A stretch of 39,467 nt of DNA from a virus: UHGV virus genome UHGV-0285531, one strand, 5' to 3'. The position numbers were made by a program, and so were the translations under genes. Below the pieces are notes generated by a model. That model searched no databases. It saw only the letters and a program-made list of their open reading frames with translations, and had not been told where the DNA came from. Positions 6,701 through 35,289 of this stretch are shown here, in pieces (position 1 is the stretch's first letter; every line of letters begins with the position of its first letter).

Positions 6701-7626
6701 TGGAGCATAGCCTAACTGGTAGTAAGCGTAAGTTCGATGACCGCTGGCTGAAGACCGCTGGTATCTCTGACGAGCAGTGGAAGGGCATTAAGTCCCTCAT
6801 CCGTGAGTCAGTGACTCGTGGTCCAGACGGGAAGTATACCATCAATGATAAGAAGGCGTTCAGTCAGGACCCAAGGGCTATGGACCTATGGCGTATGGGT
6901 GATACCATCGCTGACGAAACGTTACTACGTCATCATAAGCTGTCCAACATGGACGCAAAGGCTTATGGTCCTCTCGCTAAGACTGTCCTTCAGTTTAAGA
7001 ACTTCGTCATCAAGTCCATCAATGGACGTACCATGCGAACCTTCTATAACGCCACGAAGAACAACCGAGCAATGGACGCTGCTCTGTCCACTGTGATCTC
7101 TATGGGTCTTGCTGGTATCTACTACATGGCTCAGGCGCACGTCAAGGCTTACGCTATGCAGGATGGTCGAGACCGTGACTACCTCAAGCAAGCTCTAGAC
7201 CCGACGATGATTGGATATGCAGCTCTTTCACGTAGTTCACATCTTGGTGGACCACTTGGGGTAGCTAACATTCTTGGTGGTATCGCTGGGTATGAGGACA
7301 CTAAGATGCTCCGTTCGTCTATCCTACCTCGTTCGCCAACAGAGAAGCCTGAACGTGCCATCGCGTATGGTGCAGCTACAAGCGACCCTGTGATGAATGT
7401 TGTTGGTAACTTCTTGGAGCAGGTTCCAGCTTTCGGATATGCTGCTAACGTTGGCGCTTCGGCTTACAACTTGGCTGGCTACCTCAAGGCTGATACTCGT
7501 GTCAACGAGCGTGACTACATGACCGGGATGTATAATACGTTCCGTGAACTGGTTCCGAACGACCCAATTACCCAGAAGCTGTTGCTTGGAACGTTTGAGG
7601 AGCAAGGTATCCACATCAAGGACTAA
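3739..7626 (+). CDS. 16: internal virion protein D (T7 gp16-like ejection protein) with a divergent N-terminal module
   Basis: Track ORF 3721-7626; likely start ATG 3739 (AAGGAG 8 nt upstream). Residues from about 200 onward align by recollection with T7 gp16 (e.g. ...PTRWN..., ARETARN, RSPTGMQSGASGK, GTYVPHVY, MPAYNRRVNGDIAIM); N-terminal ~150 aa (RGIRNNNPGNIR...) does not resemble the T7 SLT domain. Confidence 0.85.
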   Translation: MATRGIRNNNPGNIRISKDQWEGMTGDDGAFVTFDSPESGVRALGKNLLSYGRQGYDSIEKIINRWAPPNENATKAYIDSVVAATGIPATQSLDLSNPDTLSSLAQAISFHETGSRYDPEVYQKGVARALNGISPKTPPVSANVFDALTEGLKAKPKVALGENLPTAAGLNIEGQAPEAPNESFGEMFYKSTGETMQEREDRSTWFGFGSATEAEVKNSMVGVAIRAGQTEDSLDVIGDVFNPTRWNNHKWSREELDQIRNAGVLPQYYGVITGGSPQNLTELINLALENQKLDQEKAKAGTGAQLAAGVIGAGVDPLTYVPIAGQIGKGGKLVNKMFTVAAQSGALAGVSEMARTSVAGGDTHVAEAILGGALFGGGMTAIADGLGRALGRNTNEFAGPATRLEARETARNVDGQDLSRLPIQEGEETFRHQGVKFADVPNEPGSVRLEDGSILIGENPLNPKTRQVFDEVIEPERAAAGVNLGGLTEIGLKLLRSENPEIRGVASDLVRSPTGMQSGASGKIGTTASDVFERLRAVDHRFYNDIDDAVTEALKDPYFQTAFWRDSGAFRQDIYQRVSMAIEDGSGNLKAELTPGELKVYDLLKNQFDAKREMMENPAMFGRPDAQSIFPGSRFKGTYVPHVYSKQMKELYTKELGSPEALQEAIKKSWLTSYASRPEVKKRVDEALLESDPTLTPEGLAAVVDKYANDKAYGISHTEQFERSSVMEENINGLVGLENNSFLEARNLFDSDMSIVLPNGQTFSVNNLREWDMDKIVPAYNRRVNGDIAIMAGTGKTTKDMKDLVETMMNKAGDDGKLKGEVSTLRDTLKILTGRARRDGADDAAFATVMRTMTDLSFFAKNAYMGVQNLTEIGGMLARGNVRAMLHGVPIFRDLAFRNKKVGASEIKDLHNVIFGKELDDSIRPSKQDVIDRLRSYSDLGRGTATALGTAKYYTGELAARSPFTKVLNGTTNYLLDAGRQGFLSDIVEHSLTGSKRKFDDRWLKTAGISDEQWKGIKSLIRESVTRGPDGKYTINDKKAFSQDPRAMDLWRMGDTIADETLLRHHKLSNMDAKAYGPLAKTVLQFKNFVIKSINGRTMRTFYNATKNNRAMDAALSTVISMGLAGIYYMAQAHVKAYAMQDGRDRDYLKQALDPTMIGYAALSRSSHLGGPLGVANILGGIAGYEDTKMLRSSILPRSPTEKPERAIAYGAATSDPVMNVVGNFLEQVPAFGYAANVGASAYNLAGYLKADTRVNERDYMTGMYNTFRELVPNDPITQKLLLGTFEEQGIHIKD

Positions 7627-7644
7627 ACTATCACTATAGGAAAC
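7622..7644 (+). promoter_or_regulatory. phage RNAP promoter (phi17-like), +1 G at 7639
   Basis: actaaactatcactataggaaac directly after gp16 stop, upstream of the tail fibre gene. Confidence 0.75.
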
Positions 7645-7690: not shown

Positions 7691-10600
7691 ATGTCCACGA
7701 TTACACAATTCCCTTCAGGAAACACTCAGTACAGGATTGAGTTCGACTACCTCGCCAGAACGTTTATTGTTGTTACGCTGGTGAATAGCTCTAACCCTAC
7801 CCTGAACCGTGTACTGGAAGTTGGTCGAGATTACCGATTCCTTAATCCAACGATGATTGAGATGTTGGTTGACCAATCAGGTTTTGACATCGTTCGTATT
7901 CACCGTCAGACTGGAACTGACTTAGTGGTAGACTTCAGGAATGGCTCAGTGTTGACAGCTAATGACCTGACCAATTCAGAGCTTCAGGCTATCCATATTG
8001 CAGAAGAAGGTCGAGACCAAACGGTTGACTTAGCGAAGGAATATGCCGATGCTGCTAGTAGCTCTGCTGGCAACGCTAAGGATAGCGAGGACGAAGCACG
8101 ACGAATCGCTGAGAGTATCAGGGAAGCTGGTCTAATTGGTTATATTACCCGTCGCTCCTTCGAGAAAGGCTACAACGTTACAACATGGAGCGAGGTCCTG
8201 CTATGGGAAGAGGATGGTGATTATTACCGCTGGGATGGTACGCTTCCAAAGAACGTTCCTGCTGGTTCAACTCCTGAAACTTCCGGTGGGATTGGATTAG
8301 GTGCGTGGGTTAGTGTTGGTGATGCTGCTTTAAGAAGTCAGATTTCAAATCCTGAAGGGGCAATACTCTACCCTGAATTACATAGAGCACGCTGGCTTGA
8401 TGAAAAAGATGTTCGTGGTTGGGGTGCTAAAGGTGATGGTGTCACTGATGATACAGCAGCGTTAACGAGCGCATTAAACGACATACCGGTTGGACAAAAG
8501 ATTAATGGCAATGGGAAGACATATAAGGTCACATCCCTGCCTGACATTAGTCGCTTCATCAACACTCGTTTCGTTTATGAGCGCATTCCCGGACAACCTC
8601 TTTATTATGCCTCTGAGGAATTTGTTCAGGGTGAGTTGTTCAAAATAACGGACACCCCTTATTACAATGCGTGGCCTCAGGATAAAGCGTTCGTATATGA
8701 TAATGTGATATATGCACCTTACATGGGTAGTGATCGTCATGGTGTTAGTCGTCTGCATGTATCATGGGTTAAGTCTGGTGATGATGGTCAAACATGGTCT
8801 ACTCCAGAGTGGTTAACTGATCTGCATCCAGATTACCCTACAGTGAACTATCACTGTATGAGTATGGGTGTATGTCGCAACCGTCTGTTTGCCATGATTG
8901 AAACACGTACTTTAGCCAAGAACGCATTAACCAATTGTGCATTGTGGGATCGCCCCATGTCTCGTAGCCTGCATCTTACTGGTGGTATCACTAAAGCTGC
9001 AAATCAGCAATATGCAACAATACATGTACCAGACCACGGACTATTCGTGGGTGATTTTGTTAACTTCTCTAATTCTGCGGTAACAGGTGTCTCCGGTGAT
9101 ATGACTGTTGCAACCGTAATAGATAAGGACAACTTCACGGTTCTTACACCCAACCAGCAGACTTCAGATTTGAATAACGCTGGAAAGAATTGGCACATGG
9201 GTACTTCTTTCCATAAGTCTCCATGGCGTAAGACAGACCTTGGTCTAATCCCTCGCGTCACAGAGGTGCATAGCTTTGCTACTATTGATAACAATGGCTT
9301 TGTTATGGGTTATCATCAAGGCGATGTAGCTCCACGCGAAGTTGGACTTTTCTATTTCCCTGACGCTTTCAATAGCCCATCTAGTTATGTTCGTCGTCAG
9401 ATACCATCTGAGTATGAACCAGATGCGTCAGAGCCGTGCATCAAGTACTATGACGGTGCATTATACCTTATCACTCGTGGCACTCGTGGGGATAGGCTAG
9501 GTAGCTCTTTGCATCGTAGTAGAGACATAGGTCAGACTTGGGAGTCACTGAGATTTCCACATAATGTTCATCATACTACATTACCTTTTGCTAAAGTAGG
9601 GGATGACCTTATTATGTTTGGTTCAGAACGTGCAGAAAATGAATGGGAAGCAGGTGCACCAGATGATCGTTACAAGGCATCTTATCCTCGCACCTTCTAT
9701 GCGCGCTTGAATGTAAACAATTGGAATGCAGATGATATTGAATGGGTTAACATCACTGACCAGATTTATCAGGGCGGAATAGTTAACTCAGGTGTAGGTG
9801 TTGGTTCGGTAGTTGTGAAGGATAATTACATCTACTACATGTTTGGTGGAGAGGACCATTTTAACCCATGGACCTATGGAGATAACTCAGCGAAGGACCC
9901 ATTCAAAGCGGATGGTCATCCCTCAGATTTGTATTGCTACAAAATGAAGATTGGCCCAAGCAATCATGTTTCCCGTGATTTCAGGTATGGTGCTGTACCT
10001 AACAGAGCTGTTCCCGTGTTTTTTGATACGAATGGGATTCGCACTGTTCCTGCGCCAATGGAATTTACAGGGGATTTGGGTTTAGGTCATGTGACTATTA
10101 GAGCCAGCACCAGTAGTAACATTCGCTCTGAAGTTTTAATGGAAGGTGAATATGGGTTTATCGGGAAATCTATACCGACTGATAACCCGGCAGGGCAGCG
10201 CACCATATTTTGCGGAGGCGACAGTACCAGTTCTTCTTCTGGTGCACAGATTACGCTTTATGGTGCAAATAATACCGACTCAAGGCGAATAGTTTACAAT
10301 GGTGCTGAGCATCTGTTCCAGACTGCTGACGTTAAGCCTTATAACGATAACGTCACTGCGCTTGGTGGGCCTAGCAACCGTTTCACCACTGCATACCTCG
10401 GAAGTAACCCTATTGTTACTTCTAACGGGGAGAGGAAAACAGAGCCGGTAGTTTTTGATGATGCTTTCCTTGATGCCTGGGGTGACGTTCACTACATCAT
10501 GTACCAGTGGTTAGATGCTGTTCAACTGAAAGGCAATGATGCTCGTATTCACTTCGGGGTTATTGCTCAGCAAATTCGTGATGTATTCATTGCACATGGT

Positions 10601-10885
10601 CTGATGGATGAAAACAGTACGAATTGTCGTTATGCTGTTCTGTGCTATGACAAGTATCCACGGATGACCGATACGGTATTTTCGCACAATGAAATCGTTG
10701 AACACACTGACGAGGAGGGTAATGTCACTACTACGGAAGAACCTGTATACACCGAGGTGGTTATTCACGAAGAGGGTGAGGAGTGGGGTGTTCGGCCTGA
10801 CGGAATTTTCTTTGCTGAAGCCGCTTATCAGAGAAGAAAACTGGAAAGAATCGAAGCCAGACTTTCTGCTCTTGAACAGAAGTAA
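7691..10885 (+). CDS. 17: tail fibre / tailspike with endo-N-acetylneuraminidase (endosialidase, K1 capsule depolymerase) and C-terminal intramolecular chaperone domain
   Basis: 1064 aa; N-terminal ~150 aa is T7 gp17-like adaptor ([25 protein letters not shown]...); remainder matches, by recollection, the phage K1F endosialidase including the C-terminal auto-cleaved chaperone segment; ATG 7691 after AGGAGG. Confidence 0.88.
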   Translation: [1064 protein letters not shown]

Positions 10886-11016
10886 TAAACAAACCCTTTG
10901 CCCTTAAGTTGGTTGGGTAGATGTTAGAAGGTTGTGGAGGTAGAGGCTAACTACACGCTAACCAACGTATGTAACAACTTTGGGTCATGGACGACCCGCT
11001 TTAAACTGGAGGTTTT

Positions 11017-11211
11017 ATGATTGAGTTAGACTTCAAGAATGAGGTCCTTAAAGCCTCTCCTATCGTCGGGACCGCTGCGGCTGATGGTGCCAGTCGGTTC
11101 TTCTTTGGACTTACACTGAACGAATGGTTCTACGTTGCAGCTATCGCGTACACCGTTGTCCAGATTGGTGTGCTAGTCTACAAAACGATTAAAGGAGGTG
11201 GTAAAACATGA
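11017..11211 (+). CDS. 17.5: holin (T7 gp17.5-like)
   Basis: 64 aa with a hydrophobic segment (WFYVAAIAYTVVQIGVLVY) and basic C-terminus; strong resemblance to T7 gp17.5 (…PIVGT…FFGL.LNEWFYVAAIAYTVVQIG…); RBS GGAGG. Confidence 0.8.
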   Translation: MIELDFKNEVLKASPIVGTAAADGASRFFFGLTLNEWFYVAAIAYTVVQIGVLVYKTIKGGGKT

Positions 11212-11471: not shown

Positions 11472-11475
11472 GTGT

Positions 11476-11520
11476 TAGACTCAAGGTCATTACTATATGT
11501 AGTGGCCTTTATGGTTAACA
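11476..11520 (+). promoter_or_regulatory. conserved hairpin element, putative RNase III processing site (R18.5-like)
   Basis: tagactcaaggtcat-N12-gtggccttt; 8-bp stem (AAGGUCAU / GUGGCCUU with G-U pairs); one of three copies of the same element (also 19754 and 27515). Confidence 0.5.
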
Positions 11521-11572
11521 CTAACTAGTGGAGGCGACTCTACGTGAAATCTGATAAACCGGGAGGGCAACT

Positions 11573-13782: not shown

Positions 13783-13876
13783 CTGAATGAATAACTATAG
13801 GCGAAAACTGAATTAATAAGTAGTTAGTAACCTATAGTTACTACCAGTCTAACCTACTGTTTTATAAGGAGTTTGG

Positions 13877-13899
13877 ACTTAACTATCACTATAGGGAAG
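13877..13899 (+). promoter_or_regulatory. phage RNAP promoter (phiOR-like), +1 G at 13894
   Basis: ggacttaactatcactatagggaagac, downstream of terminase, upstream of gp19.5-like ORF and genome right end. Confidence 0.75.
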
Positions 13900-15555: not shown

Positions 15556-15891
15556 ATGGAACGTAACGCTAACGCATACTATGAGCTGCTGGCTGCAACC
15601 GTTGAGCTGTTCAATGAGCGTATTCAGTGCGACGAAATAGCTGAAGGCGATGACTACAGCGATGCGCTACATGAGGTCGTAGACGGTAATGTTCCGCACT
15701 ATTACCACGAGATTTTCACGGTGATGGCTGCTGATGGTATTGACCATGAGTTCGAAGACTCTGGGCTGATGCCTGAGACCAAGGACGTAACGCGTATACT
15801 ACAAGCTCGCATCTATGAGGCACTGTATAACGATGTGTCTAATAGCTCTGAGGTGGTCTGGTTTGAGGCTGAAGAGGAGGACTGCGAGTGA
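15556..15891 (+). CDS. ocr: Ocr, DNA-mimic anti-restriction protein (T7 gp0.3-like)
   Basis: 111 aa, acidic; motif block VPHYYHEIFTVMAADGIDHEFEDSGLMPETKDVTRILQARIYEAL closely matches recollected T7 Ocr; RBS GAGAGGA. Confidence 0.88.
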   Translation: MERNANAYYELLAATVELFNERIQCDEIAEGDDYSDALHEVVDGNVPHYYHEIFTVMAADGIDHEFEDSGLMPETKDVTRILQARIYEALYNDVSNSSEVVWFEAEEEDCE

Positions 15892-16649: not shown

Positions 16650-16654
16650 TTATG

Positions 16655-16677
16655 ACTTAACTATCACTATAGGACTC
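16655..16677 (+). promoter_or_regulatory. phage RNAP promoter immediately upstream of the RNAP gene, +1 G at 16672
   Basis: gacttaactatcactataggact; full consensus core; ~74 nt upstream of the RNAP start codon. Confidence 0.7.
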
Positions 16678-19657: not shown

Positions 19658-19732
19658 CAGACCTACAGTTACTGGCCTTGTGGCTGGGAGCACTAGCAGT
19701 ATTCACTTTAATCCAACGCAGAAGAGGTTAAC

Positions 19733-19755
19733 CCTAAACTATCACTATAGGATTA
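19733..19755 (+). promoter_or_regulatory. phage RNAP promoter (phi1.1-like), +1 G at 19750
   Basis: ccctaaactatcactataggatt. Confidence 0.75.
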
Positions 19756-19800
19756 GACTCAAGGTCATGACTCAAAGTCGTGGCCTTCATGATTAACCCT
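19754..19800 (+). promoter_or_regulatory. conserved hairpin element, putative RNase III site (R1.1-like)
   Basis: tagactcaaggtcat-N11-gtggccttcatgattaaccc; second copy of the 11476 element. Confidence 0.5.
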
Positions 19801-19825
19801 AACTCATTCAATCAGGAGCTACACC

Positions 19826-20009: not shown

Positions 20010-20273
20010 ATGGGCCGACTTTATAGTGGCAACCTAAACGCTTTCAAAGCAGCGTGTAACAGGCTCTATCAGTTAGACTTCGCTGTCATATCTCAGGAGT
20101 TTCAAGACCTTGCGTCACGCCAAGAGTGTATGAGACTCAGGGTGGAGGACCGAGCTGGTAACATCTTCGCGCTTGTAACCTTCGCACGCTACGATGAAGA
20201 CGTGCTGTATAACACTGCAACCGACTACCTCAACGGTCTCGCTGACCATCTCGACACATGGAGCAAATCATAA
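20010..20273 (+). CDS. 1.2: gp1.2-like protein (dGTPase inhibitor homologue)
   Basis: 87 aa starting MGRLYSGNL..AFKAA, matching recollected T7 gp1.2 N-terminus and length. Confidence 0.75.
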   Translation: MGRLYSGNLNAFKAACNRLYQLDFAVISQEFQDLASRQECMRLRVEDRAGNIFALVTFARYDEDVLYNTATDYLNGLADHLDTWSKS

Positions 20274-21328
20274 TGACTACGACTATTAAAACTAACCCGC
20301 ACCGCGCTGTAGATTACTCTGAGTCTGGCGTTAAGAAGGCACTGGAAGCAGCCGGGTCTCTGGAAGCTGAAGTGAAGTACGACGGTGTGCGCCTGAATCT
20401 CCCGGTCTTCCCTACTGGTGAGACTCAATGGTTGAGCCGTGAGTCTAAAGAGCTTCCGGCCCTAAGCTGGCTGGGCACATCCGGTGACGACATCGGTGCT
20501 GCCAAGGCTAGCGACTGGCGATGGTTCCTTAAACAGGCTGGATACGAAGGTACTGGCCTGATGATTGACGGCGAGGTGATGGTAAAGGGTGTAGACTTCA
20601 ACACATCCTCAGGACTTATTCGCACGAAGTGGCTGAAGCCTGATAACCTAAAGTTCAATGACGTAAAGTTTGACGAGATGCCTCGTAAGTCTACAGGCGC
20701 TAAGTCTAAACTTCCGTTCCTACTGGCAGCCGAGCACATCCAAGTGGTTGTATACGGGATTATTGACCTTAACGTCATCCTCGACCCAAAAGCTGAAGGG
20801 CCTATCCACAGCGTAACGCGACTGAAGGCCGAAGCTGTCGTCCCTCTCCTCCAGAAATACTTCCCGGAAATCGACTGGGTGCTATCTGAGAGTCATACAG
20901 TGTTTAGCTTAGACGAGCTTACTGACTTGTATGAGAAGAAGAGAGAAGAGGGCCATGAGGGTCTGGTAGTTAAAGACCCACTGGGACGCTGGAAGCGTGG
21001 CAAGAAGTCAGGTATGTTCAAGATGAAACCAAGCGAAGAGGCAGACGGTCACGTTGTACGGCCTATATGGGGAACAGAAGGTCTAGCCAACGAAGGTATG
21101 GTCATCGGCTTTGACGTTATGCTTGAGAACGGGATGGAGGTCTCCGCAACTAACATTAGTCGCGCCCTAATGTCCGAGTTCACCGAAAACGTTAAGTCCG
21201 ACCCTGATTATTATAAAGGCTGGGCCTGCCAGATTACCTACATGGAGGAGACACCAAGTGGCTTACTACGGCATCCCTCGTTCGACCAGTGGCGTGGAAC
21301 TGAGGACGACCCTACGGTCAAGATTTAA
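20273..21328 (+). CDS. 1.3: ATP-dependent DNA ligase (T7 gp1.3-like)
   Basis: Track ORF 20258-21328; preferred ATG 20273 (MTTTIKTNP... aligns with T7 start); KYDGVR adenylation motif, EGHEGLVVKDP, KSGMFKMKP, C-terminal LRHPSF. Confidence 0.9.
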   Translation: MTTTIKTNPHRAVDYSESGVKKALEAAGSLEAEVKYDGVRLNLPVFPTGETQWLSRESKELPALSWLGTSGDDIGAAKASDWRWFLKQAGYEGTGLMIDGEVMVKGVDFNTSSGLIRTKWLKPDNLKFNDVKFDEMPRKSTGAKSKLPFLLAAEHIQVVVYGIIDLNVILDPKAEGPIHSVTRLKAEAVVPLLQKYFPEIDWVLSESHTVFSLDELTDLYEKKREEGHEGLVVKDPLGRWKRGKKSGMFKMKPSEEADGHVVRPIWGTEGLANEGMVIGFDVMLENGMEVSATNISRALMSEFTENVKSDPDYYKGWACQITYMEETPSGLLRHPSFDQWRGTEDDPTVKI

Positions 21329-21719
21329 AGCAGACAGGGCGGCTCCCTCTGGAGTCTCCAACCTAAACGGTAGACATCTTGGCTATAGACGAAAGGATGG
21401 GTACTGGATTCTAAGTACGACAAAGGGCCAACTGCTGGCCCACCGAGTAGTCTGGGAACTAACCAACGGTCCTATACCAGAAGGGATGGTGATTGACCAT
21501 ATCAACCGGGACCCTTCGGATAACAGGATTGAGAACCTCAGGTGTGTGACTCAGGCGGTGAACCTAACTAACGTTCCAACCCGTAGTCACTGCCAATCTG
21601 GAGAGAAATACGTTCAATACCAGAAATCAACTGGTCGCTGGCAACTGCGGATAAAGCGTAAGTCATACGGTACGTTCGATACCATAGCCGAGGCAGTAGC
21701 CTTAAGAGATTCATTATAA
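21258..21719 (+). CDS. HNH homing endonuclease with C-terminal AP2-like DNA-binding domain; start uncertain, overlaps ligase 3' end
   Basis: HNH motif MVIDHINRDPSDNRIENLRCVTQAVN; C-terminal KYVQYQKSTGRWQLRIKRKSYGTFDTIAEAVALRD is AP2-like; only in-frame starts are GTG 21258 or GTG 21294, both inside the ligase gene. Confidence 0.75.
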   Translation: MAYYGIPRSTSGVELRTTLRSRFKADRAAPSGVSNLNGRHLGYRRKDGYWILSTTKGQLLAHRVVWELTNGPIPEGMVIDHINRDPSDNRIENLRCVTQAVNLTNVPTRSHCQSGEKYVQYQKSTGRWQLRIKRKSYGTFDTIAEAVALRDSL

Positions 21720-21757: not shown

Positions 21758-21778
21758 CGTCTGGGCCACAAGCCTGAC

Positions 21779-21801
21779 CCTAAGCTATCACTATAGGACA
21801 A
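21779..21801 (+). promoter_or_regulatory. phage RNAP promoter (phi1.5/1.6-like), +1 G at 21796
   Basis: ccctaagctatcactataggaca (one substitution upstream of core). Confidence 0.7.
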
Positions 21802-22827: not shown

Positions 22828-22986
22828 ATGACTGACGTAGAGAAGAAATACATCGTGGAGCTTGAGGGTCGCGTTCAGTCCTTCGAGGTTCCGGTGTACG
22901 CAAAGTCTCTTGAAGAGGCTACCCTGAAGTCACAAGAGTATGAGGACGCTGGGTTTGTGGTCGGACGGATTCGTCCTGAGACCTAA
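22828..22986 (+). CDS. 2: Gp2-like inhibitor of host RNA polymerase
   Basis: Track ORF 22750-22986; preferred ATG 22828 (AGGAG 9 nt upstream); [14 protein letters not shown]...[10 protein letters not shown] matches recollected T7 Gp2 (SFEVPIYAETLDEA...AGFEVTRVRP). Confidence 0.75.
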
Positions 22987-23004
22987 ACTATCACTGTAGG
23001 ACAG
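22982..23004 (+). promoter_or_regulatory. phage RNAP promoter variant (phi2.5-like), +1 G at 22999
   Basis: cctaaactatcactGtaggacag: G instead of A at -3. Confidence 0.6.
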
Positions 23005-23043: not shown

Positions 23044-23742
23044 ATGGCTAAAGAGCAGTTGAAGACTTTCACCACTCCGGTAGCTGGTATCGTTGAGCCT
23101 TACGCATGGCTGAACAAAGCAGACACCAAGTTTAATGATCGCGGTGAGCATAAGGTTAACCTGACTTTCGACCTGAGCAACCCGAAGGTCCGTAAGATGA
23201 TTGATGTCTTACAGAAGATTCACGACGATGCGTATGCGAAAGCACTCGCAGACCACGAGAAGAACCCGCCTCAGGTTCAGCGTGGCAAGAAGCCTATCGA
23301 GCCGCGTGAAGGCGATATGCCGTGGATTGAGAATGGTGACGGTACTGTTACCCTGAAGTTTAAATGCTTTGCGTCTTACCTTAAAGATGGCAAGTCAGAG
23401 CCTATCGTATTACGGTTCTACGACACCGATGCTAAGTTAATCCGTGACGTCCCGAATATTGGCTCTGGCTCAAAGCTGAAGGTCAAGTTTAAAGTACTAC
23501 CGTTCAAGTGGAACGCTGCTACTGGTGCAAGCGTTAAGCTCCAGCTTGAGTCCTGCCTTCTGGTAGAACTGAAGGAGTGGAAAGGTGATGGTGCTGGTGG
23601 CGATGGTGGCTGGGGTGATGATGAAGACCTCGGTACTGGCTACAAAGCGTCAACCGATGGTGACTTCGGTGACGATGACTTCGGTGACGATGGTTCCGAA
23701 GGCGGTGACGACTCCAACTCTGGTGGCGATTACGACTTCTAA
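23044..23742 (+). CDS. 2.5: single-stranded DNA-binding protein (T7 gp2.5-like)
   Basis: 232 aa (same as T7 gp2.5); acidic Gly/Asp-rich tail ending ...DYDF. Confidence 0.9.
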   Translation: MAKEQLKTFTTPVAGIVEPYAWLNKADTKFNDRGEHKVNLTFDLSNPKVRKMIDVLQKIHDDAYAKALADHEKNPPQVQRGKKPIEPREGDMPWIENGDGTVTLKFKCFASYLKDGKSEPIVLRFYDTDAKLIRDVPNIGSGSKLKVKFKVLPFKWNAATGASVKLQLESCLLVELKEWKGDGAGGDGGWGDDEDLGTGYKASTDGDFGDDDFGDDGSEGGDDSNSGGDYDF

Positions 23743-24194
23743 TGGCCCAATGGTCTGCAAAACGGGGGCACTCTGTGGGTGCCTACCGCTCTGGACTTGA
23801 AGCCAAGAACCAGCAGTGGCTGGAACAGAACGGCGTCAAAGCGGAGTACGAAAGCCATTATATCAACTATGTGATTCCGGCTTCCGACCACAAGTACACA
23901 CCAGATTTTATCCTTCCTAACGGTATTATCGTGGAGACCAAAGGTATCTTCGATAGTGATGACCGTAAGAAGCACCTTCTGGTACGAGAACAGCACCCAG
24001 AGTTAGACATCAGGTTCGTGTTCTCAAGTTCCCGCTCCAAGCTATACAAAGGGTCTCCGACCACGTATGGCGCATGGTGCGAAAAGAACGGCTTTAAGTA
24101 TGCCGACAAGTTTATCCCAGTTGAGTGGCTGAGAGAGGTGACTGTACGTCTTCCTTCCGGCATCCTCATCCCTAAGAAGAAAGGAGTTAAGTGA
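23742..24194 (+). CDS. 3: endonuclease I, Holliday-junction resolvase (T7 gp3-like)
   Basis: 150 aa; AYRSGLE, YVIPAS.HKYTPDF.LPNGI.VETKG, DRKKHLLVREQHPELDIRFVFSSSRSKLYKGSPT match recollected T7 endonuclease I. Confidence 0.9.
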   Translation: MAQWSAKRGHSVGAYRSGLEAKNQQWLEQNGVKAEYESHYINYVIPASDHKYTPDFILPNGIIVETKGIFDSDDRKKHLLVREQHPELDIRFVFSSSRSKLYKGSPTTYGAWCEKNGFKYADKFIPVEWLREVTVRLPSGILIPKKKGVK

Positions 24195-24649
24195 TGATTA
24201 CCTGTAAAGACCTTGAAGTTGGAACACGTTACAGATTCTCAAAGAACACCCTGATGAATAACCCTCAATTCACTGATGCTGTTTTCGAAAAGCGAGAAGA
24301 CCATAGCGTAATTGTGGAGAAGGGGTGGCATCCTGAGGATTACATTGGTGAGACTACCAGCTGGAATGGTCACGAGAACTACAGTGTAGAAGTTGTTGAA
24401 CAGCCTCAAGTCCTGCCAGCCTCAAGCGTCCCTCCTGTCACCGTTAAACGTGAAGTCCTGACCATCAACAAGATTGGTGTAGGCCAGACGTTCATCGTCC
24501 ACGGTAAGCCTGACGAAGTGTACGTGAAGATTAGCAACTCTCACGTATTCAACCACAAGCGACTCCAGATGCACACGACTGACGCACAGCGCTTCCAGTC
24601 ACATCTGAATCTGGTGGTAGTAGAACTGGTGGTGTACAATGGGAAGTAA
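24194..24649 (+). CDS. hypothetical protein (151 aa) between endonuclease I and lysozyme
   Basis: Track ORF 24191 (GTG) / ATG 24194 overlapping gp3 stop; no homologue recognised; T7 has no gene at this position. Confidence 0.55.
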   Translation: MITCKDLEVGTRYRFSKNTLMNNPQFTDAVFEKREDHSVIVEKGWHPEDYIGETTSWNGHENYSVEVVEQPQVLPASSVPPVTVKREVLTINKIGVGQTFIVHGKPDEVYVKISNSHVFNHKRLQMHTTDAQRFQSHLNLVVVELVVYNGK

Positions 24650-25097
24650 GGTCAAGTTCAACCCACGGTCCCGTACTGACGCTATCTTCGTTCACTGTTC
24701 GGCTACAAAGCCAGATATGGACATCGGGGTAGAGACCATCCGTATGTGGCACAAGCAGCAAGGCTGGCTGGACGTAGGCTACCATTTTATCATCAAGCGC
24801 GATGGCACTGTGGAAGAGGGTCGCCCGGTAAATGTCGTAGGGTCACACGTTAAGGATTGGAACTCCCGGTCCGTAGGCGTCTGCCTTGTAGGGGGAATTG
24901 ACGCTAAGGGTCAGTTTGAAGCTAACTTCACTACAGCCCAGATGAACTCCCTGCGCAACAAGCTGGCTGACCTGAAGTCCATGTATCCTCAGGCAGAAAT
25001 CAAAGCACACCATGACGTAGCACCTAAGGCGTGTCCAAGTTTCGACTTGCAACGCTGGCTGTCTACCAATGAACTGGTCACTTCCGACCGTGGTTAA
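24639..25097 (+). CDS. 3.5: N-acetylmuramoyl-L-alanine amidase / T7 lysozyme (gp3.5-like)
   Basis: 152 aa; TDAIFVHCSATKP, QGWLDVGYHFIIKRDGTVE, VGVCLVGGID, HHDVAPKACPSFDL, C-terminal NELVTSDRG match recollected T7 lysozyme. Confidence 0.92.
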   Translation: MGSKVKFNPRSRTDAIFVHCSATKPDMDIGVETIRMWHKQQGWLDVGYHFIIKRDGTVEEGRPVNVVGSHVKDWNSRSVGVCLVGGIDAKGQFEANFTTAQMNSLRNKLADLKSMYPQAEIKAHHDVAPKACPSFDLQRWLSTNELVTSDRG

Positions 25098-25122
25098 TAA
25101 AACTCTAAAGGAGAATAACTCA

Positions 25123-25338
25123 ATGATTAAACTTATTGAATTTCTTGGTCGTCTGGTGGTGCGTGGTTATCGTCGTGCTGCGGTACTGGAACGAAAGGTA
25201 GAAAAGAAGACTGCTGACAGTGCGGCTGATGCTGCTGCTCTGGCTGACAAGCTGACAATAGCGTCACTGGAAGCTGGCATGAAGGCACGTCAAGCTGACA
25301 CCAAAGCTGACCAGTTGGCTCAGTTCTTCAAAGCCTAA
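25123..25338 (+). CDS. hypothetical protein (71 aa)
   Basis: Track ORF 25069-25338; preferred ATG 25123 (AAAGGAG upstream, downstream of lysozyme stop); Ala/Lys-rich, likely helical. Confidence 0.45.
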   Translation: MIKLIEFLGRLVVRGYRRAAVLERKVEKKTADSAADAAALADKLTIASLEAGMKARQADTKADQLAQFFKA

Positions 25339-25356
25339 ACTATCACCTTAGGGATG
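25334..25356 (+). promoter_or_regulatory. phage RNAP promoter variant (phi4-like), +1 G at 25351
   Basis: cctaaactatcacCTtagggatg: two substitutions at -4/-3; transcript begins with a GGGAC...GUCCC hairpin. Confidence 0.5.
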
Positions 25357-25406
25357 GGACCACTAGTCCTGTCCCTTTGTTCGCATTATTGATTAAGGAG
25401 TGACCA

Positions 25407-25586
25407 ATGGTTACAGTTATTCTAGTTCTAACGCTGATCAGTGGTAGTGGGCAAACTATCAGCCAAGTACCTATAACAGCACCGACATTACAGGACGCAT
25501 TCACAATATGTGACCAGTCCGGCTCAAAGTGGGCCGACAAGTTTGGCGATGTCTCAAACGTTGCAGCAGGGTATGAGTGTATTTAA
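25407..25586 (+). CDS. hypothetical small protein (59 aa) with N-terminal signal-peptide-like segment
   Basis: Not in track; ATG 25407 preceded by ttaaggagtgacca (identical to the primase RBS); MVTVILVLTLISGSG hydrophobic N-terminus. Confidence 0.4.
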   Translation: MVTVILVLTLISGSGQTISQVPITAPTLQDAFTICDQSGSKWADKFGDVSNVAAGYECI

Positions 25587-27348: not shown

Positions 27349-27513
27349 GTGTTAAAGAAACTTAAAGCTCGATACCATCGGTTCATGTACAAATGGTGGA
27401 GTGACGAAGCAACCTTCCTGTCCAACATTCTGGGAGACCAGAGGTTCGACTCTAAGGCATGGAAGAAAGCTAACCGGAAGTTTATGTATCACTTCTTGCG
27501 TACAGACTTCTAG
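27349..27513 (+). CDS. hypothetical small basic protein (gp4.x position); start uncertain
   Basis: Track ORF 27313-27513 (GTG); in-frame GTG 27349 has ACGGAGGA upstream. Confidence 0.35.
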   Translation: MLKKLKARYHRFMYKWWSDEATFLSNILGDQRFDSKAWKKANRKFMYHFLRTDF

Positions 27514-27514
27514 G

Positions 27515-27560
27515 TCTAGACTCAAGGTCATTCACATCGAGTGGCCTTTATGATTAGACT
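27515..27560 (+). promoter_or_regulatory. conserved hairpin element, putative RNase III site (R4.7-like)
   Basis: tagactcaaggtcat-N9-gtggcctttatgattagac; third copy of the element. Confidence 0.5.
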
Positions 27561-27576
27561 AAACGGAGGATTAACC

Positions 27577-29748
27577 ATGTTTGACCTTAAGAGTATCTGG
27601 GGTTCTGACATCGAGACCAACGGTCTCCTTGATACAGTCTCCCAGTTCCACTGTGGGGTCCTGATTAACGCCGAGTCGAATGAGACCCTTAAGTACGGGG
27701 TAGCTCCGATGGTCGGTATCGTCGGTGGCTTCAAAGAGTATGTTCATAAAGTTGAAGAGATTGCCGCATCGCCTGATGGTATGCTGGTATTCCACAACGG
27801 TATCAACTATGACGTCCCGGCTATAGACAAGCTGAAGCGTTTGTACTTTGGGAAACGCTTTAACTTCCCGAAACATAAGATGATTGATACCTTGGTACTG
27901 GGACGCTTGCTGTATCCAAACATTAAGTTCTCAGACATGGGCGCAGTGAAAGCTGGTCGTCTGCCACCTAAGATGATGGGACGCCAGTCTCTTGAGGCTT
28001 GGGGCTATCGTCTCGGTGAGATGAAAGGTGAGTACAAACACGATTACGTTGCCAAGTGCAAGGCTGAAGGTATCGAATATAAGGCTGGGGACGAATGGTT
28101 GTTCCCGTCTCAGGAGATGCTGGACTATAACGTTCAAGACGTTGTGGTCACACTGGCGTTGTTCAAGAAGTTCCTGACTGACAAGTATTACTTCCAGTCT
28201 GAACAGTTCGCTTTCGACCAGATTTATGCGTTGCGTCTGGAACATGATGCTGCGTGGACCTGTGCGAAGATGGAACGTAACGGCTATCCGATGAACACCG
28301 AGATGGTCGAAGGCTTATATCGTGAACTCACCGTCAAACGTGCAGAGCTGCTGGACAAGCTGCGTTCGACTTTCGGTAGCTGGTACGCACCAAAGGGAGG
28401 CAAGGAGTTCTTCAGGCATCCACGGACAGGCAAGGACCTTCCGAAGTACCCACGAGTCGTGTATCCTAAGGTCGGGTCAGTATTCAAGAAGCCGAAGAAC
28501 AAAGCTCAACGCTTAGGTCTGGAGCCTTGCGAGTTTGACTCACGAGACACGATGGAGGGAGCACCGTTCACACCTATCACTTACGTTGAGTTTAATCCGG
28601 GAAGCGGAGACCACTTAGCGAAAGTCTTGATGGAGCGTGGTTGGGAGCCTGTGGACTTCACTGACACTGGGAAACCTGTAGTCGATGATGAGACGTTAGA
28701 GCACGTTAAGTTACCGGACGCAGAGGCTCAGGATTGCGTAGAGCTGGTCCGTGAGTATCTGGTAGTCCAGAAGCGCATAGGTCAGGCGGCTGAAGGTAAT
28801 AACGCATGGTTGAAACTTGTAGGTCCAGACGGACGTATGCACGGTTCAATCAACCCTTGTGGAGCAGTAACCGGACGTGCGACCCATAGTTCACCAAACA
28901 TGGCTCAGGTCCCTGCTAACGGTGCTCCGTATGGTGAGATTTGCCGTGGTGCTTTCGGTGCAGCTTGGAACAAGACGGATGGTAAGCCAGACCCTTGGAT
29001 TCAAGTGGGTGTGGATGCTTCAGGTCTTGAGCTTCGTTGTCTTGGGAACCGAGCGGCTCCGTTTGATGGTGGTGCCTATGCGAAGACTGTGGTCGAAGGT
29101 GACATCCACTGGGCCAATGCAGTAAACGCTGGGTTAGCACCTAACGTCCCACGCGATAAGTCGAGCCACGACCATGATGCTTTCCGTAACAACGCTAAGA
29201 CGTTCATCTATGCGTTCCTATATGGTGCAGGGGCCGCTAAGATTGGACTGATAGTAGGCGGTGGGAAGAAGGAAGGTTCAGCTCTCATGAAGAAATTCAT
29301 TGAGGGTACACCAGCCATCAAAGACCTCAGGGAAGCTGTGAGTAATACGTTAATCTCAGACTCTAAGTGGGTGGACGGAGAGAACATCGTTAAGTGGAAA
29401 CGCCGTTGGCTGCGTGGACTTGATGGTCGCCGTATCCACATCCGGTCGCCACACTCAGCACTGAACGCCTTACTTCAAGGCGATGGTGCGGTAGTCTGTA
29501 AGCACTGGATTGTCGAGACTGAACGTATGCTCGAAGAGGCAGGGTATGTTCACGGCTGGGAAGGTGACTTTGCGTACATGGCTTGGGTGCATGATGAATT
29601 GCAGATTGCGTGTCGTACTCAGGAGATTGCCGAAGAAGTCGTCAAGATTGCGCAACTTGCTATGCGTAAGGTGGGTGAGTTCTATAACTTTAAATGTGTC
29701 CTTGATACCGAAGGTAAGATTGGACCAACGTGGAAGGAGTGTCACTAA
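27577..29748 (+). CDS. 5: DNA polymerase (T7 gp5-like, family A with 3'-5' exonuclease)
   Basis: Track ORF 27541 (GTG, inside hairpin element) to 29748; preferred ATG 27577 (ACGGAGGA upstream; MFDLKSIWGSDIETNGL); recollected identity to T7 gp5 throughout (VFHNG..YDVPA, YNVQDVVVT, GAVTGRATH, GIDASGLELRCL, DNAKTFIYGFLYGAG, AWVHDE). Confidence 0.95.
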   Translation: MFDLKSIWGSDIETNGLLDTVSQFHCGVLINAESNETLKYGVAPMVGIVGGFKEYVHKVEEIAASPDGMLVFHNGINYDVPAIDKLKRLYFGKRFNFPKHKMIDTLVLGRLLYPNIKFSDMGAVKAGRLPPKMMGRQSLEAWGYRLGEMKGEYKHDYVAKCKAEGIEYKAGDEWLFPSQEMLDYNVQDVVVTLALFKKFLTDKYYFQSEQFAFDQIYALRLEHDAAWTCAKMERNGYPMNTEMVEGLYRELTVKRAELLDKLRSTFGSWYAPKGGKEFFRHPRTGKDLPKYPRVVYPKVGSVFKKPKNKAQRLGLEPCEFDSRDTMEGAPFTPITYVEFNPGSGDHLAKVLMERGWEPVDFTDTGKPVVDDETLEHVKLPDAEAQDCVELVREYLVVQKRIGQAAEGNNAWLKLVGPDGRMHGSINPCGAVTGRATHSSPNMAQVPANGAPYGEICRGAFGAAWNKTDGKPDPWIQVGVDASGLELRCLGNRAAPFDGGAYAKTVVEGDIHWANAVNAGLAPNVPRDKSSHDHDAFRNNAKTFIYAFLYGAGAAKIGLIVGGGKKEGSALMKKFIEGTPAIKDLREAVSNTLISDSKWVDGENIVKWKRRWLRGLDGRRIHIRSPHSALNALLQGDGAVVCKHWIVETERMLEEAGYVHGWEGDFAYMAWVHDELQIACRTQEIAEEVVKIAQLAMRKVGEFYNFKCVLDTEGKIGPTWKECH

Positions 29749-30032
29749 TGGCTATTACTAAACGTATTCGTGTGAGTTTTGACCTGAAGATGGTTGTTAG
29801 CTCAGAGGAAGAAGAGACCATTTGTCGTCAGCTTGCTAAGATGACTAAAACCTACGCTGAGGGTGAGAAGCTGGATGGACTTCAGTTGGCTGTGGCCAAA
29901 ACAGCAATCGAGTCAGGCCCTGAGTCTGCCCTTGAAATTGTCGCCAAGAAGAACATCAAGAAGGAGCTGGTAGGCGCCTTTGGTGATGGCCAGTTCGGTG
30001 TGTCCAACCTGCGATTCGAGGTCAAGCAATGA
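29748..30032 (+). CDS. 5.5: gp5.5-like protein (H-NS-binding protein homologue)
   Basis: Track ORF 29730-30032; preferred ATG 29748 overlapping gp5 stop (GGAAGGAG upstream); MAITKRIRVSFD resembles recollected T7 gp5.5 start. Confidence 0.55.
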   Translation: MAITKRIRVSFDLKMVVSSEEEETICRQLAKMTKTYAEGEKLDGLQLAVAKTAIESGPESALEIVAKKNIKKELVGAFGDGQFGVSNLRFEVKQ

Positions 30033-31319: not shown

Positions 31320-31445
31320 TATACTGGGCCGGACTTCTGGTCCTTTACTGCATGTACAAGTGGTTCGGGTCGAACAACCGTCCTAAACACTGAGTCTAAC
31401 CGATAGTCATATCCTATCAATCCAACAGTCATCCATAGGTGGAAC

Positions 31446-31468
31446 ACTAAACTATCACTATAGGGACT
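31446..31468 (+). promoter_or_regulatory. phage RNAP promoter (phi6.5-like), +1 G at 31463
   Basis: cactaaactatcactatagggactt. Confidence 0.75.
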
Positions 31469-32702: not shown

Positions 32703-34271
32703 ATGGCTGAACGTGAAGGGTTCGCTGCTGAAGGAGCCAAAGCGGTCTATGACCGCCTGAAGAACGGTAGACAGCCATATGAGACACGCGCTCAGAATTG
32801 TGCTGCTGTCACTATCCCGTCACTGTTTCCTAAGGAGTCCGACAACTCGTCTACTGAGTACACCACTCCGTGGCAAGCTGTAGGTGCTCGATGTTTGAAC
32901 AACTTGGCTGCAAAGCTGATGTTGGCATTATTCCCCCAGTCACCGTGGATGCGACTTACAGTCTCCGAATATGAGGCTAAGACCTTGAGTCAGGACTCAG
33001 AGGCTGCTGCTCGTGTTGACGAGGGGCTTGCTATGGTCGAGCGTGTGTTGATGGCCTACATGGAGACAAACAGTTTCCGTGTGCCATTGTTCGAAGCTCT
33101 GAAGCAGCTTATAGTCTCCGGTAACTGTCTGCTCTACATTCCAGAGCCTGAACAGGGAACCTACAGTCCCATGCGAATGTACCGCTTAGTGTCTTACGTT
33201 GTTCAACGTGATGCGTTCGGTAACATCTTGCAGATTGTGACTCTCGACAAGGTAGCGTTTAGTGCTCTACCGGAAGACGTTAAGTCACAACTAAACGCAG
33301 ACGACTATGAGCCTGACGCAGAGCTGGAAGTATATACGCACATCTACCGTCAAGACGACGAGTATCTACGTTATGAGGAAGTGGAAGGCATTGAGGTAGC
33401 AGGGACCGAGGGTTCCTACCCACTGACTGCATGTCCATACATCCCGGTACGAATGGTTCGACTGGATGGTGAAGACTATGGTCGTTCTTACTGCGAGGAG
33501 TATCTGGGAGACCTGAACTCGCTGGAGACGATTACAGAAGCTATCACCAAAATGGCTAAGGTAGCCTCCAAGGTGGTGGGCCTCGTTAACCCGAACGGTA
33601 TCACGCAACCTCGTCGTCTGAACAAGGCGGCTACAGGTGAGTTCGTTGCCGGTCGCGTTGAGGACATCAACTTCCTGCAACTGACTAAGGGTCAGGACTT
33701 TACGATTGCCAAGTCGGTGGCTGATGCTATCGAGCAACGTTTAGGCTGGGCCTTCCTTCTTAATAGTGCTGTTCAGCGTAATGCCGAGCGAGTCACTGCT
33801 GAAGAGATTCGTTATGTTGCTGGCGAACTGGAGGCGACCTTAGGTGGCGTGTACTCAGTACAATCCCAAGAGCTTCAGTTACCTATCGTACGTGTGCTGA
33901 TGAACCAACTTCAGTCTGCTGGCATGATTCCTGACCTTCCGAAAGAAGCGGTAGAGCCTACTGTCTCCACCGGTCTGGAAGCGTTAGGTCGTGGTCAGGA
34001 CTTGGAGAAGCTAACTCAGGCGATTAACATGATGACTGGTCTTCAGCCTCTATCTCAGGACCCGGACATAAACTTGCCGACCCTTAAGCTACGACTCCTG
34101 AACGCTCTGGGTATCGACACCGCTGGCCTACTCCTGACGCAAGACGAGAAGACTCAGCGCATGGCTGAGCAGTCGTCTCAACAGGCAGTTGTCCAAGGTG
34201 CTAGTGCTGCTGGTGCTAACATGGGTGCTGCTGTAGGTCAGGGAGCTGGTGAGGACATGGCTCAAGCCTAA
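32703..34271 (+). CDS. 8: portal (head-to-tail connector) protein (T7 gp8-like)
   Basis: 522 aa; ATG after AAGGAGGTG; size and position as T7 gp8. Confidence 0.9.
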   Translation: MAEREGFAAEGAKAVYDRLKNGRQPYETRAQNCAAVTIPSLFPKESDNSSTEYTTPWQAVGARCLNNLAAKLMLALFPQSPWMRLTVSEYEAKTLSQDSEAAARVDEGLAMVERVLMAYMETNSFRVPLFEALKQLIVSGNCLLYIPEPEQGTYSPMRMYRLVSYVVQRDAFGNILQIVTLDKVAFSALPEDVKSQLNADDYEPDAELEVYTHIYRQDDEYLRYEEVEGIEVAGTEGSYPLTACPYIPVRMVRLDGEDYGRSYCEEYLGDLNSLETITEAITKMAKVASKVVGLVNPNGITQPRRLNKAATGEFVAGRVEDINFLQLTKGQDFTIAKSVADAIEQRLGWAFLLNSAVQRNAERVTAEEIRYVAGELEATLGGVYSVQSQELQLPIVRVLMNQLQSAGMIPDLPKEAVEPTVSTGLEALGRGQDLEKLTQAINMMTGLQPLSQDPDINLPTLKLRLLNALGIDTAGLLLTQDEKTQRMAEQSSQQAVVQGASAAGANMGAAVGQGAGEDMAQA

Positions 34272-34289
34272 ACTATCACTATAGGAACA
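34267..34289 (+). promoter_or_regulatory. phage RNAP promoter (phi9-like), +1 G at 34284
   Basis: cctaaactatcactataggaaca overlapping gp8 stop; 5' leader forms long-range stem GGAACAACACAAC / GUUGUUGUGUUUUCC. Confidence 0.75.
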
Positions 34290-34380: not shown

Positions 34381-35265
34381 ATGTCTCAATCAGTTTATGC
34401 CGAGTTCGGCGTTAGCTCTAATGCAATCACTGGTTCCGTTGAGGACCTGAACGAACACCAAAAGTCTATGCTTGAACAGGACGTAGCTGTTCGTGATGGC
34501 GACGACGCTATTACCTTCAAGCAACTGGAAGCCGAAAACGAAGAGGCTACCGAAGAAGACGAGAACGTCGAAGAGATTGAAGGTGAAGAAGACCACGAGT
34601 CAGATGACGAAGAGTCTGAGACCGATGGTGAGCAGCCTGAGTTCATCGAACTGGGTGATGCACCGAAAGAGCTGACTGAAAGTGTCACCGCTCTGGATGA
34701 AAACGAAGCTGCATTCGACGACATGGTGTCTTCTGCTGTAGAAGCTGGCAAGGTCACTGCTGATGAAATTACCGCTATCAAGGCTGAATACGCCAAGGAC
34801 GGTAAGCTGTCTGACGCATCCTACGCTAAGTTGCAGGAAGCAGGTTACACCAAGCGTTTCGTAGATTCGTTTGTCCGTGGTCAGGAAGCTCTTGCTGAAC
34901 AGTATGCTGCTGGTGTGGTTCGCTACGCTGGTGGTGCTGAACAGTTTAATCGCATCCTGTCACACCTTGAGTCCAATGACCCGTCAACTCGTGAAGCACT
35001 GGAAGCTGCTATCGTTCGTAAGGACATTGCTACTACCAAGGCTCTGCTGAATCTGGCTGGCAAGACTCTGGGTAAAGCTGTGGGTGTTAAACCTCAGCGT
35101 ACCATCACCACTCAGGCTAAACCTGTGGTCGCACCTAAGGCTCCTCAGACAGAAGCATTCAGCTCCAAGGCTGACATGATTAAGGCTATGAGTGACCCGC
35201 GATACCTGCGTGACGCTAAGTACACGATGGAAGTCCGCGCTAAGGTAGCTGCCTCAAGCCTGTAG
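34381..35265 (+). CDS. 9: capsid assembly (scaffolding) protein (T7 gp9-like)
   Basis: Track ORF 34339-35265; preferred ATG 34381 (AAAGGAGAATG upstream); highly acidic, Glu/Asp-rich centre. Confidence 0.8.
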   Translation: MSQSVYAEFGVSSNAITGSVEDLNEHQKSMLEQDVAVRDGDDAITFKQLEAENEEATEEDENVEEIEGEEDHESDDEESETDGEQPEFIELGDAPKELTESVTALDENEAAFDDMVSSAVEAGKVTADEITAIKAEYAKDGKLSDASYAKLQEAGYTKRFVDSFVRGQEALAEQYAAGVVRYAGGAEQFNRILSHLESNDPSTREALEAAIVRKDIATTKALLNLAGKTLGKAVGVKPQRTITTQAKPVVAPKAPQTEAFSSKADMIKAMSDPRYLRDAKYTMEVRAKVAASSL

Positions 35266-35266
35266 G

Positions 35267-35289
35267 ACTAAACTATCACTATAGGGAGA
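35267..35289 (+). promoter_or_regulatory. phage RNAP promoter (phi10-like), full consensus incl. GGGAGA, +1 G at 35284
   Basis: ctaaactatcactatagggagac; transcript starts with GGGAGACC...GGUUUCCC 5' hairpin (35284-35315). Confidence 0.85.

Follow-up and report, generated by a model that had tools for sequence, protein, structure and literature searches.

Gene 3.2 of a K1F-like phage: a constant core with an exchangeable N-terminal domain, encoded between endonuclease I and lysozyme

In bacteriophage T7, gene 3 (10257-10706) abuts gene 3.5 (10706-11161), position 10706 being both the end of the former and the start of the latter; nothing lies in between. In the stretch of DNA analysed here (virus genome UHGV-0285531, 39,467 nucleotides, hereafter the window), the same two genes are separated by an open reading frame of 151 codons, which the initial annotation, having correctly stated the T7 arrangement, described as an unassigned gene inserted between endonuclease I and lysozyme. 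What is this gene, how did it come to occupy this slot and what might its product do? The locus is laid out as follows.

23742..24194, + strand: gene 3, endonuclease I, upstream neighbour, translationally coupled (Pfam PF05367, E 1.6e-81)
24181..24196, + strand: translation start region, with the Shine-Dalgarno sequence AAGGAG (24181-24186) and the stop/start overlap TGATG (24192-24196), from the sequence
24194..24649, + strand: gene 3.2 coding sequence, 151 aa plus TAA stop (24647-24649), ortholog of K1F gp3.2 (ORF list, PHROG, tblastn)
24639..24649, + strand: 11-nt overlap of genes 3.2 and 3.5 (sequence; same overlap in 29/32 related loci)
24639..25097, + strand: gene 3.5, T7-lysozyme-type amidase, downstream neighbour, translationally coupled (PF01510, E 3e-16; PHROG 822, E 1.7e-79)

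The open reading frame is indeed well formed, coupled to the stop codon of gene 3 and overlapping the start of the lysozyme gene, as first described: base 24194 belongs both to the TGA of gene 3 (24192-24194) and to the ATG of gene 3.2 (24194-24196), and the Shine-Dalgarno sequence AAGGAG lies 7 nt upstream of this ATG. An alternative in-frame GTG at 24191 appears a less likely start, because the homologues begin with M-I/T-T-C. The final eight codons (ELVVYNGK) overlap the Shine-Dalgarno sequence and the ATG of gene 3.5, and these start signals probably explain why the tail is conserved despite its unmodelled structure; in a divergent, Providencia-type subfamily described below, another open reading frame follows the gp3.2-like gene and the tail differs. 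In Escherichia phage PH1061, gene 3.2 and the amidase gene are kept apart by an inserted HNH endonuclease gene (locus L001, 2946-3317), showing that the 3.2/3.5 overlap is not obligatory. Just upstream of the locus, a 71-aa open reading frame in another frame (23585-23800) overlaps gene 2.5 at its 3' end and gene 3 at its beginning, a position that matches K1F gene 2.55.

The gene is almost certainly the ortholog of K1F gene 3.2, that is, a catalogued gene and no new insertion. Its product matches PHROG 16385 (E 6.3e-52, aa 66-151) and PHROG 15211 (E 1.8e-40, aa 82-151), two phage families of unknown function, the former corresponding to K1F gp3.2 itself and the latter to a 74-aa form of the protein. 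By tblastn, homologues are present in about 220 deposited T7-like phage records, the closest full-length relatives being those of PH1061 (98%) and of BDX03P1 and PhiNW-B1 (94% each); T7 has none. The homologue is called gene 3.2 in the K1F record (YP_424930), gp3.2 in Dev2 and 3.01 in CR8/CR44b. In the window and in 32/32 related loci examined, the gene lies directly after gene 3 and upstream of the amidase gene. Thus, the description as an unassigned, inserted gene has to be corrected. An identical protein is already found in public assemblies, where all named cluster members are "hypothetical", and the gene tables of published genomes list gp3.2 in the same way, including a December 2025 genome paper with a 151-aa protein in the same slot. 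The literature on gp3.2 or gene 3.2, and that on anti-defence and accessory genes of Kayfunavirus, yielded only such hypothetical-protein listings, with no function given.

The statement that the protein has no recognisable motif holds for Pfam (E up to 1), NCBIfam, PADLOC and PDB sequences, none of which gave a match with the single protein or with profiles of the full protein or its core, and fails for PHROG. The PADLOC defence-system models were also run, without a match, on a homologue with a different N-terminal domain (type B, see below) and on one from the Providencia-type subfamily. A profile search of 1.84 billion cluster representatives returned 14 matches, and the core motif of gp3.2 is present in all those whose sequences were inspected; no relative of either half of the protein outside the family was found there. 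Searches of 5.8 billion proteins gave 254 and 84 matches, on contigs that, where they could be judged, had the length of a T7-like genome (about 39-41 kb), and IMG/VR holds 23 gp3.2 loci. As far as these sequence searches reach, the family is narrow and confined to a few T7-like lineages. The recommended homology search placed the protein in a family, PHROG 16385/15211; a function was obtained neither from sequence nor from structure.

The window is the complete, circularly permuted genome of a K1F-like phage of the genus Kayfunavirus, and the 3-kb region around gene 3.2 is 94-97% identical to the corresponding regions of phages Pipis, Vec13, PhiNW-B1 and others. A phage-RNA-polymerase promoter of about 24 nt occurs in eleven copies across the genome, from which we conclude that the T7-like genome is complete and circularly permuted.

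344-367, 7620-7643, 13875-13898, 16653-16676, 19731-19754, 21777-21800, 22980-23003, 25332-25355, 31444-31467, 34265-34288, 35265-35288: copies of the phage-RNA-polymerase promoter, core CTAAACTATCACTATAGG
22980..23003, + strand: nearest promoter upstream of gene 3.2, located upstream of gene 2.5 (11-copy repeat family)
25332..25355, + strand: next promoter copy downstream of gene 3.2 (11-copy repeat family)

No copy of this family lies within genes 3-3.5, and no sigma-70-like promoter was found on the + strand of the gene 3.2 stretch, whose sole terminator-like site (25400-25414) lies downstream of gene 3.7. Gene 3.2, without a promoter of its own, shares a promoter-bounded block with genes 2.5, 3, 3.5 and 3.7. 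By this position, behind a phage-RNA-polymerase promoter and within the DNA-metabolism block, it would be a class II (middle) gene of the T7 group. Elsewhere in the window, we noticed an Ocr-like gene (15556-15891), a gp1.2-like gene (dGTPase inhibitor; 20010-20273) and a gp5.5-like gene (H-NS inhibitor; 29730-30032), and saw no open reading frame of the size of the T7 gp0.7 kinase in the early region ahead of the RNA polymerase gene. An HNH homing-endonuclease open reading frame (21258-21719; PHROG 99, E 1.7e-42) has a listed GTG start that overlaps the 3' end of the DNA ligase open reading frame (20258-21328), and its true start is probably further downstream. Finally, a 52-nt direct repeat of 85% identity, containing TAGACTCAAGGTCAT, is found at 11475-11526 and at 19753-19804, with a partial third copy at 27511-27531; one copy is directly downstream of the promoter at 19731, and the repeat might be an RNA processing site or an origin-associated element.

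That gene 3.2 might be a chance or decaying open reading frame filling the space between two genes could be argued from the fact that all records call it hypothetical and that the copy of Shigella phage ESh23 is annotated as nonfunctional due to mutation. The substitution pattern refutes this. In comparisons with homologues, dN/dS is 0.05-0.1 at dS 0.4-1.4; against seven related phages, the C-terminal 70 codons, referred to below as the core, give dN/dS values of 0.06-0.23 at dS 0.6-1.4, resembling those of genes 2.5, 3 and 3.5. Such purifying selection together with abundant synonymous change means that the gene is translated. The Shine-Dalgarno sequence and the coupled starts, as well as the occurrence of the gene in some 220 phage records and two divergent lineages, also speak against a filler, which is scarcely conceivable. 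We looked for a housekeeping match and for any sign that the gene is untranslated, either of which would have told against the reading first proposed, and found neither. Among 29 distinct enterobacterial DNA sequences, 36 of the 68 residues of the C-terminal domain are invariant, and 27 of these 36 are specified by more than one codon, which places the constraint on the protein and not on the DNA. An RNA element, or another constraint at the nucleotide level, was accordingly discarded as the cause of the conservation: no Rfam family matches the window at any point, folding of the 3' portion is weaker than that of shuffled sequence (z +1.5) and synonymous variation is plentiful. A local dip in this variation was seen at codons Y110-N115 (24521-24538, YVKISN), which have only one or two codon variants in the 29 distinct sequences where neighbouring invariant residues have two to six; it lies just upstream of the invariant SNSH motif and extends into its first two codons.

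The two halves of the protein behave differently, and it is nearly certain that gp3.2 consists of a constant C-terminal core preceded by an exchangeable N-terminal domain. Its parts are given below.

24194..24397, + strand: exchangeable N-terminal domain, type A (aa 1-68), a predicted SH3-like beta-barrel; acidic, pI 5.0; 43.1% GC
24398..24442, + strand: Pro-rich linker (aa 69-83, EQPQVLPASSVPPVT) and inter-domain recombination breakpoint; low pLDDT, conserved across N types, recovery of DNA identity
24443..24646, + strand: conserved C-terminal core (aa 84-151), from alignments, stand-alone genes, dN/dS and AlphaFold
24533..24595, + strand: invariant motif S114-N-S-H117, F119-N120, Q125-M-H-T-T129, R133-F134, the presumed binding site (57- and 8-sequence alignments)

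In many phages, among them Dev2, MopsHU1 and Penshu1, the core is the entire gene (74 aa); in the window and many other phages, an N-domain of 55-75 aa and a Pro-rich linker, PQVLPASSVPPVT, stand ahead of it. An internal start for a core-only product was sought in the window gene, and no in-frame ATG, GTG or TTG is present at aa 69-96. The N-domains fall into at least six multi-member families plus four singletons, between which, or between N-domains and the core (as expected from an internal duplication), no profile-profile similarity was detected (hhalign probability <8%). Three proteins carry two N-domains in tandem. Nine other N types and the tandem form, run against Pfam and PHROG, matched the gp3.2 PHROGs only. 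K1F gp3.2 illustrates the point: as in the window, its gene follows gene 3 and overlaps gene 3.5 by 11 nt, and its C-terminal domain, with 94% identity to that of the window protein, has the same invariant motif, yet its N-domain (type B) is unrelated to the type A domain of the window (17% identity in a forced alignment, hhalign probability 0.1%). In the phage collection, types A, B, C and D are represented by 27, 56, 10 and 2 records, respectively, and none of the four was seen anywhere but immediately next to the endonuclease gene. No specificity for a host genus was seen, A, B and D each being shared by phages from several genera.

The divergent subfamily mentioned above has the same organization. 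It is found, directly after endonuclease I, in T7-like phages that have Providencia phage PSTRCR_120 as their sole close deposited relative. Its core, of about 40% identity, has the same motif, and the subfamily has a linker (WYDEKSAMRE) and a set of N-domains of its own. When its members are included, the residues invariant in 57 sequences are G97, F100, Y110, S114, N115, S116, H117, F119, N120, Q125, M126, H127, T128, T129, R133 and F134, so residues 114-134 of the window protein carry the family motif SNSHxFN..QMHTT..RF. A small enzyme was also considered, for instance a degenerate NlpC/P60-like or another His-dependent hydrolase. Such an activity is very improbable for a domain of only ~70 residues whose core contains no invariant cysteine or acidic residue and for which neither Pfam nor PDB sequences gave a match, even at E=1-10; an NlpC/P60 peptidase in particular was rejected, as the catalytic Cys, the helix that bears it and any sequence signal are all missing.

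Several observations show that the locus is mosaic. The first 204 nt (24194-24397) have a GC content of 43.1%, the 4.7th percentile of 204-nt windows in a genome of 49.7% GC, whereas the C-terminal half, at 48.8%, is ordinary; the impression that the gene is more AT-rich than its neighbours is thus accurate for its N-terminal half only. N types combine freely with core subtypes. Compared with one related locus (L012), the window has pS 0.10 in the N-domain and 0.40 in the core, while comparison with another (L017) gives 0.80 and 0.31. With respect to K1F and MopsHU1, the flanking genes have a dS of ~0.16 and the core of gene 3.2 a dS of 0.7-1.4, and DNA identity to these two phages collapses exactly at the stop of gene 3 and recovers at the linker, at ~24392-24492. 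This discordant divergence, the free association of N-domains and cores and the collapse and recovery of identity mean that the gene 3.2 locus is a mosaic hot spot, with the linker as a breakpoint, in a backbone that is otherwise conserved. The N-domain also accumulates nonsynonymous changes 4-10 times faster than the core (pN 0.2-0.48 versus 0.02-0.08). Where synonymous sites are unsaturated, omega is typically 0.06-0.5 for the N-domain and 0.05-0.1 for the core, which indicates relaxed constraint on the former rather than demonstrable positive selection.

These data bear on the idea that gp3.2 serves a neighbouring gene product as an accessory or regulatory subunit, modulating endonuclease I, assisting the amidase in binding the phage RNA polymerase or acting as an SH3b-like, cell-wall-binding partner. 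The invariant position and the coupling of the gene are what one would expect of such a subunit. We nevertheless consider it quite unlikely: T7 runs both enzymes without such a protein, gene 3.2 alleles do not co-diverge with their flanks (as seen with K1F and MopsHU1), and an HNH gene in PH1061 or another open reading frame in Providencia phages can separate gene 3.2 from gene 3.5. As for the cell-wall variant, the peptidoglycan of Gram-negative bacteria is too uniform to explain ten types of N-domain.

AlphaFold was used to model the window protein. With an alignment of 31 sequences, the N-domain was predicted with a pLDDT of ~90 and the core was poorly modelled; with 57 sequences, the divergent subfamily having been added, pLDDT reached 85-90 over aa 90-140 of the core, the linker and the last seven residues remaining below 50. 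In these models, the N-domain would be a small SH3-like beta-barrel and the core a beta-rich domain of ~70 aa. In the viral structure library BFVD, the matches were limited to members of the family and to small, uncharacterised proteins of phages. The resemblances to FeoA, to the C-terminal domain of DtxR/IdeR and to KapB have structural scores at the level of a generic fold, with 7-17% sequence identity and an unrelated gene context, and no FeoA-related or other Pfam model matches gp3.2 (E up to 1). The structural matches, all weak and generic, suggest a small binding module and nothing more specific. One of the BFVD matches, also weak (TMt 0.61, E 0.1), is to a 74-aa protein of Morganella phage MP2. 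MP2 gp20 (locus L034, 6040-6264) is a 74-aa orphan open reading frame that, in another genus, occupies the same slot between endonuclease I and endolysin and overlaps the endolysin start; it has one relative only in 5.8 billion proteins. It was rejected as a relative of gp3.2, having neither significant sequence similarity nor the SNSH/QMHTT motif.

Taken with the two-module architecture, these models lead us to favour, tentatively, the view that gp3.2 is a non-enzymatic binding or adaptor protein with two modules, belonging to the middle class of genes. With its invariant polar patch, the core would bind a partner that does not differ among these phages and would be either one of their own proteins or a highly conserved component of the host. 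The N-domain, held by the tether, would supply another specificity, a variable one, most plausibly directed at a host factor that differs between strains. The tether is kept in both subfamilies, the core suffices alone and both predicted folds are typical of binding modules. Against an adaptor, the N type does not track the host genus, there is no signal of positive selection, and a site for a nucleotide or a nucleic acid could be formed just as well by the invariant patch, with its S, N, S, H, N, Q, H, T, T and R and its aromatic residues. In tethering adaptors such as SspB, a flexible linker joins a small beta-barrel to another binding element. By analogy, gp3.2 would resemble them in having two binding elements and a flexible, low-confidence linker; it differs in that its constant element is a folded domain and not a short peptide, no homology was detected, and no protease or partner is implicated.

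In another reading, the conserved core is itself a ligand or nucleic-acid binder and the N-domains are add-ons. The core might form a small oligomeric sponge for a signalling nucleotide or, as a part of DNA metabolism, a barrel like those of Sm, KOW or Sso7d that binds DNA or RNA. We regard this as a minor possibility. Positive charge is not conserved, the core of the Providencia-type subfamily having a pI of ~7.6 and a net charge of +0.4, which weakens any deduction of nucleic-acid binding from a basic pI; the structural matches are generic, as said above; and the sequence searches connected the core with no known family of sponges or nucleic-acid binders. The sponges that are known have a wide phylogenetic distribution, unlike the gp3.2 family with its few T7-like lineages.

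The adaptor model that we favour can be extended, in the direction of the host-interaction or anti-defence role initially suggested, to a plug-and-play scaffold for counter-defence or host takeover: the core would anchor to a fixed phage or host machine, each N cassette would neutralise a different strain-variable host factor, and recombination at the linker would re-arm the phage. In this strong form the proposal seems unlikely to us, even if a swappable N-domain is compatible with an anti-defence or host-interaction role and the cassettes are of at least ten types, sometimes two in tandem, at least one being shared with a neighbouring gene. The analysis gave no direct support to such a role. 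A survey with AntiDefenseFinder names Ocr as the only anti-defence protein of Kayfunavirus. Ocr (gp0.3), gp1.2, gp2 and gp5.5 of the T7 group are small non-structural proteins, encoded by early or middle genes, whose mode of action is to bind a protein of the host; gp3.2 is likewise small, non-structural and, by position, probably middle. It has no sequence relationship to any of them in the profile search of 1.84 billion representatives, and is absent from T7. The gene for gp2 is annotated in records of related phages.

As a gene, then, 3.2 is known, an ordinary "hypothetical" of many K1F-like phages; what stands out is a cassette-like N-domain that recombines independently of the core and of the flanking backbone, a pattern typical of loci engaged with variable host factors. 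With such a cassette, exchanging domains would be a simple test of the anti-defence idea. Therapy-oriented studies of capsulated E. coli make use of Kayfunaviruses, and if the adaptor model is true, a small swappable host-interaction module would offer a practical handle for host-range engineering and a tractable system for finding a new phage-host interaction.

In gp2.5 and gp3.5, T7 is nearer to the window phage than the Providencia-type lineage is, and in gp3 the two are about equally distant. The absence of gene 3.2 from T7 may reflect either loss by T7-type phages or horizontal movement of the gene. An informative exception among the N-domains is that of a metagenomic protein, P0176: it has 79% identity to the beginning of another open reading frame, located after the gp3.2-like gene in PSTRCR_120, which points either to the capture of a domain from a neighbouring gene or to an assembly chimera, the contig being 551 nt long. 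The PSTRCR_120 open reading frame (locus L035, 1659-2012) encodes 117 aa, the first 72 of which form the part similar to P0176; the C-terminal half of P0176 is a gp3.2 core. In the metagenomic Providencia-type lineage (loci L008/L009), a 79-aa open reading frame (L009, 6438-6677) lies between the gp3.2-like gene and the amidase gene. Its BLAST similarity to the product of gene 3.7 of the window (25069-25338) is not significant; the two are alike in composition, each having an N-terminus that is both hydrophobic and basic and, after it, a probably helical segment.
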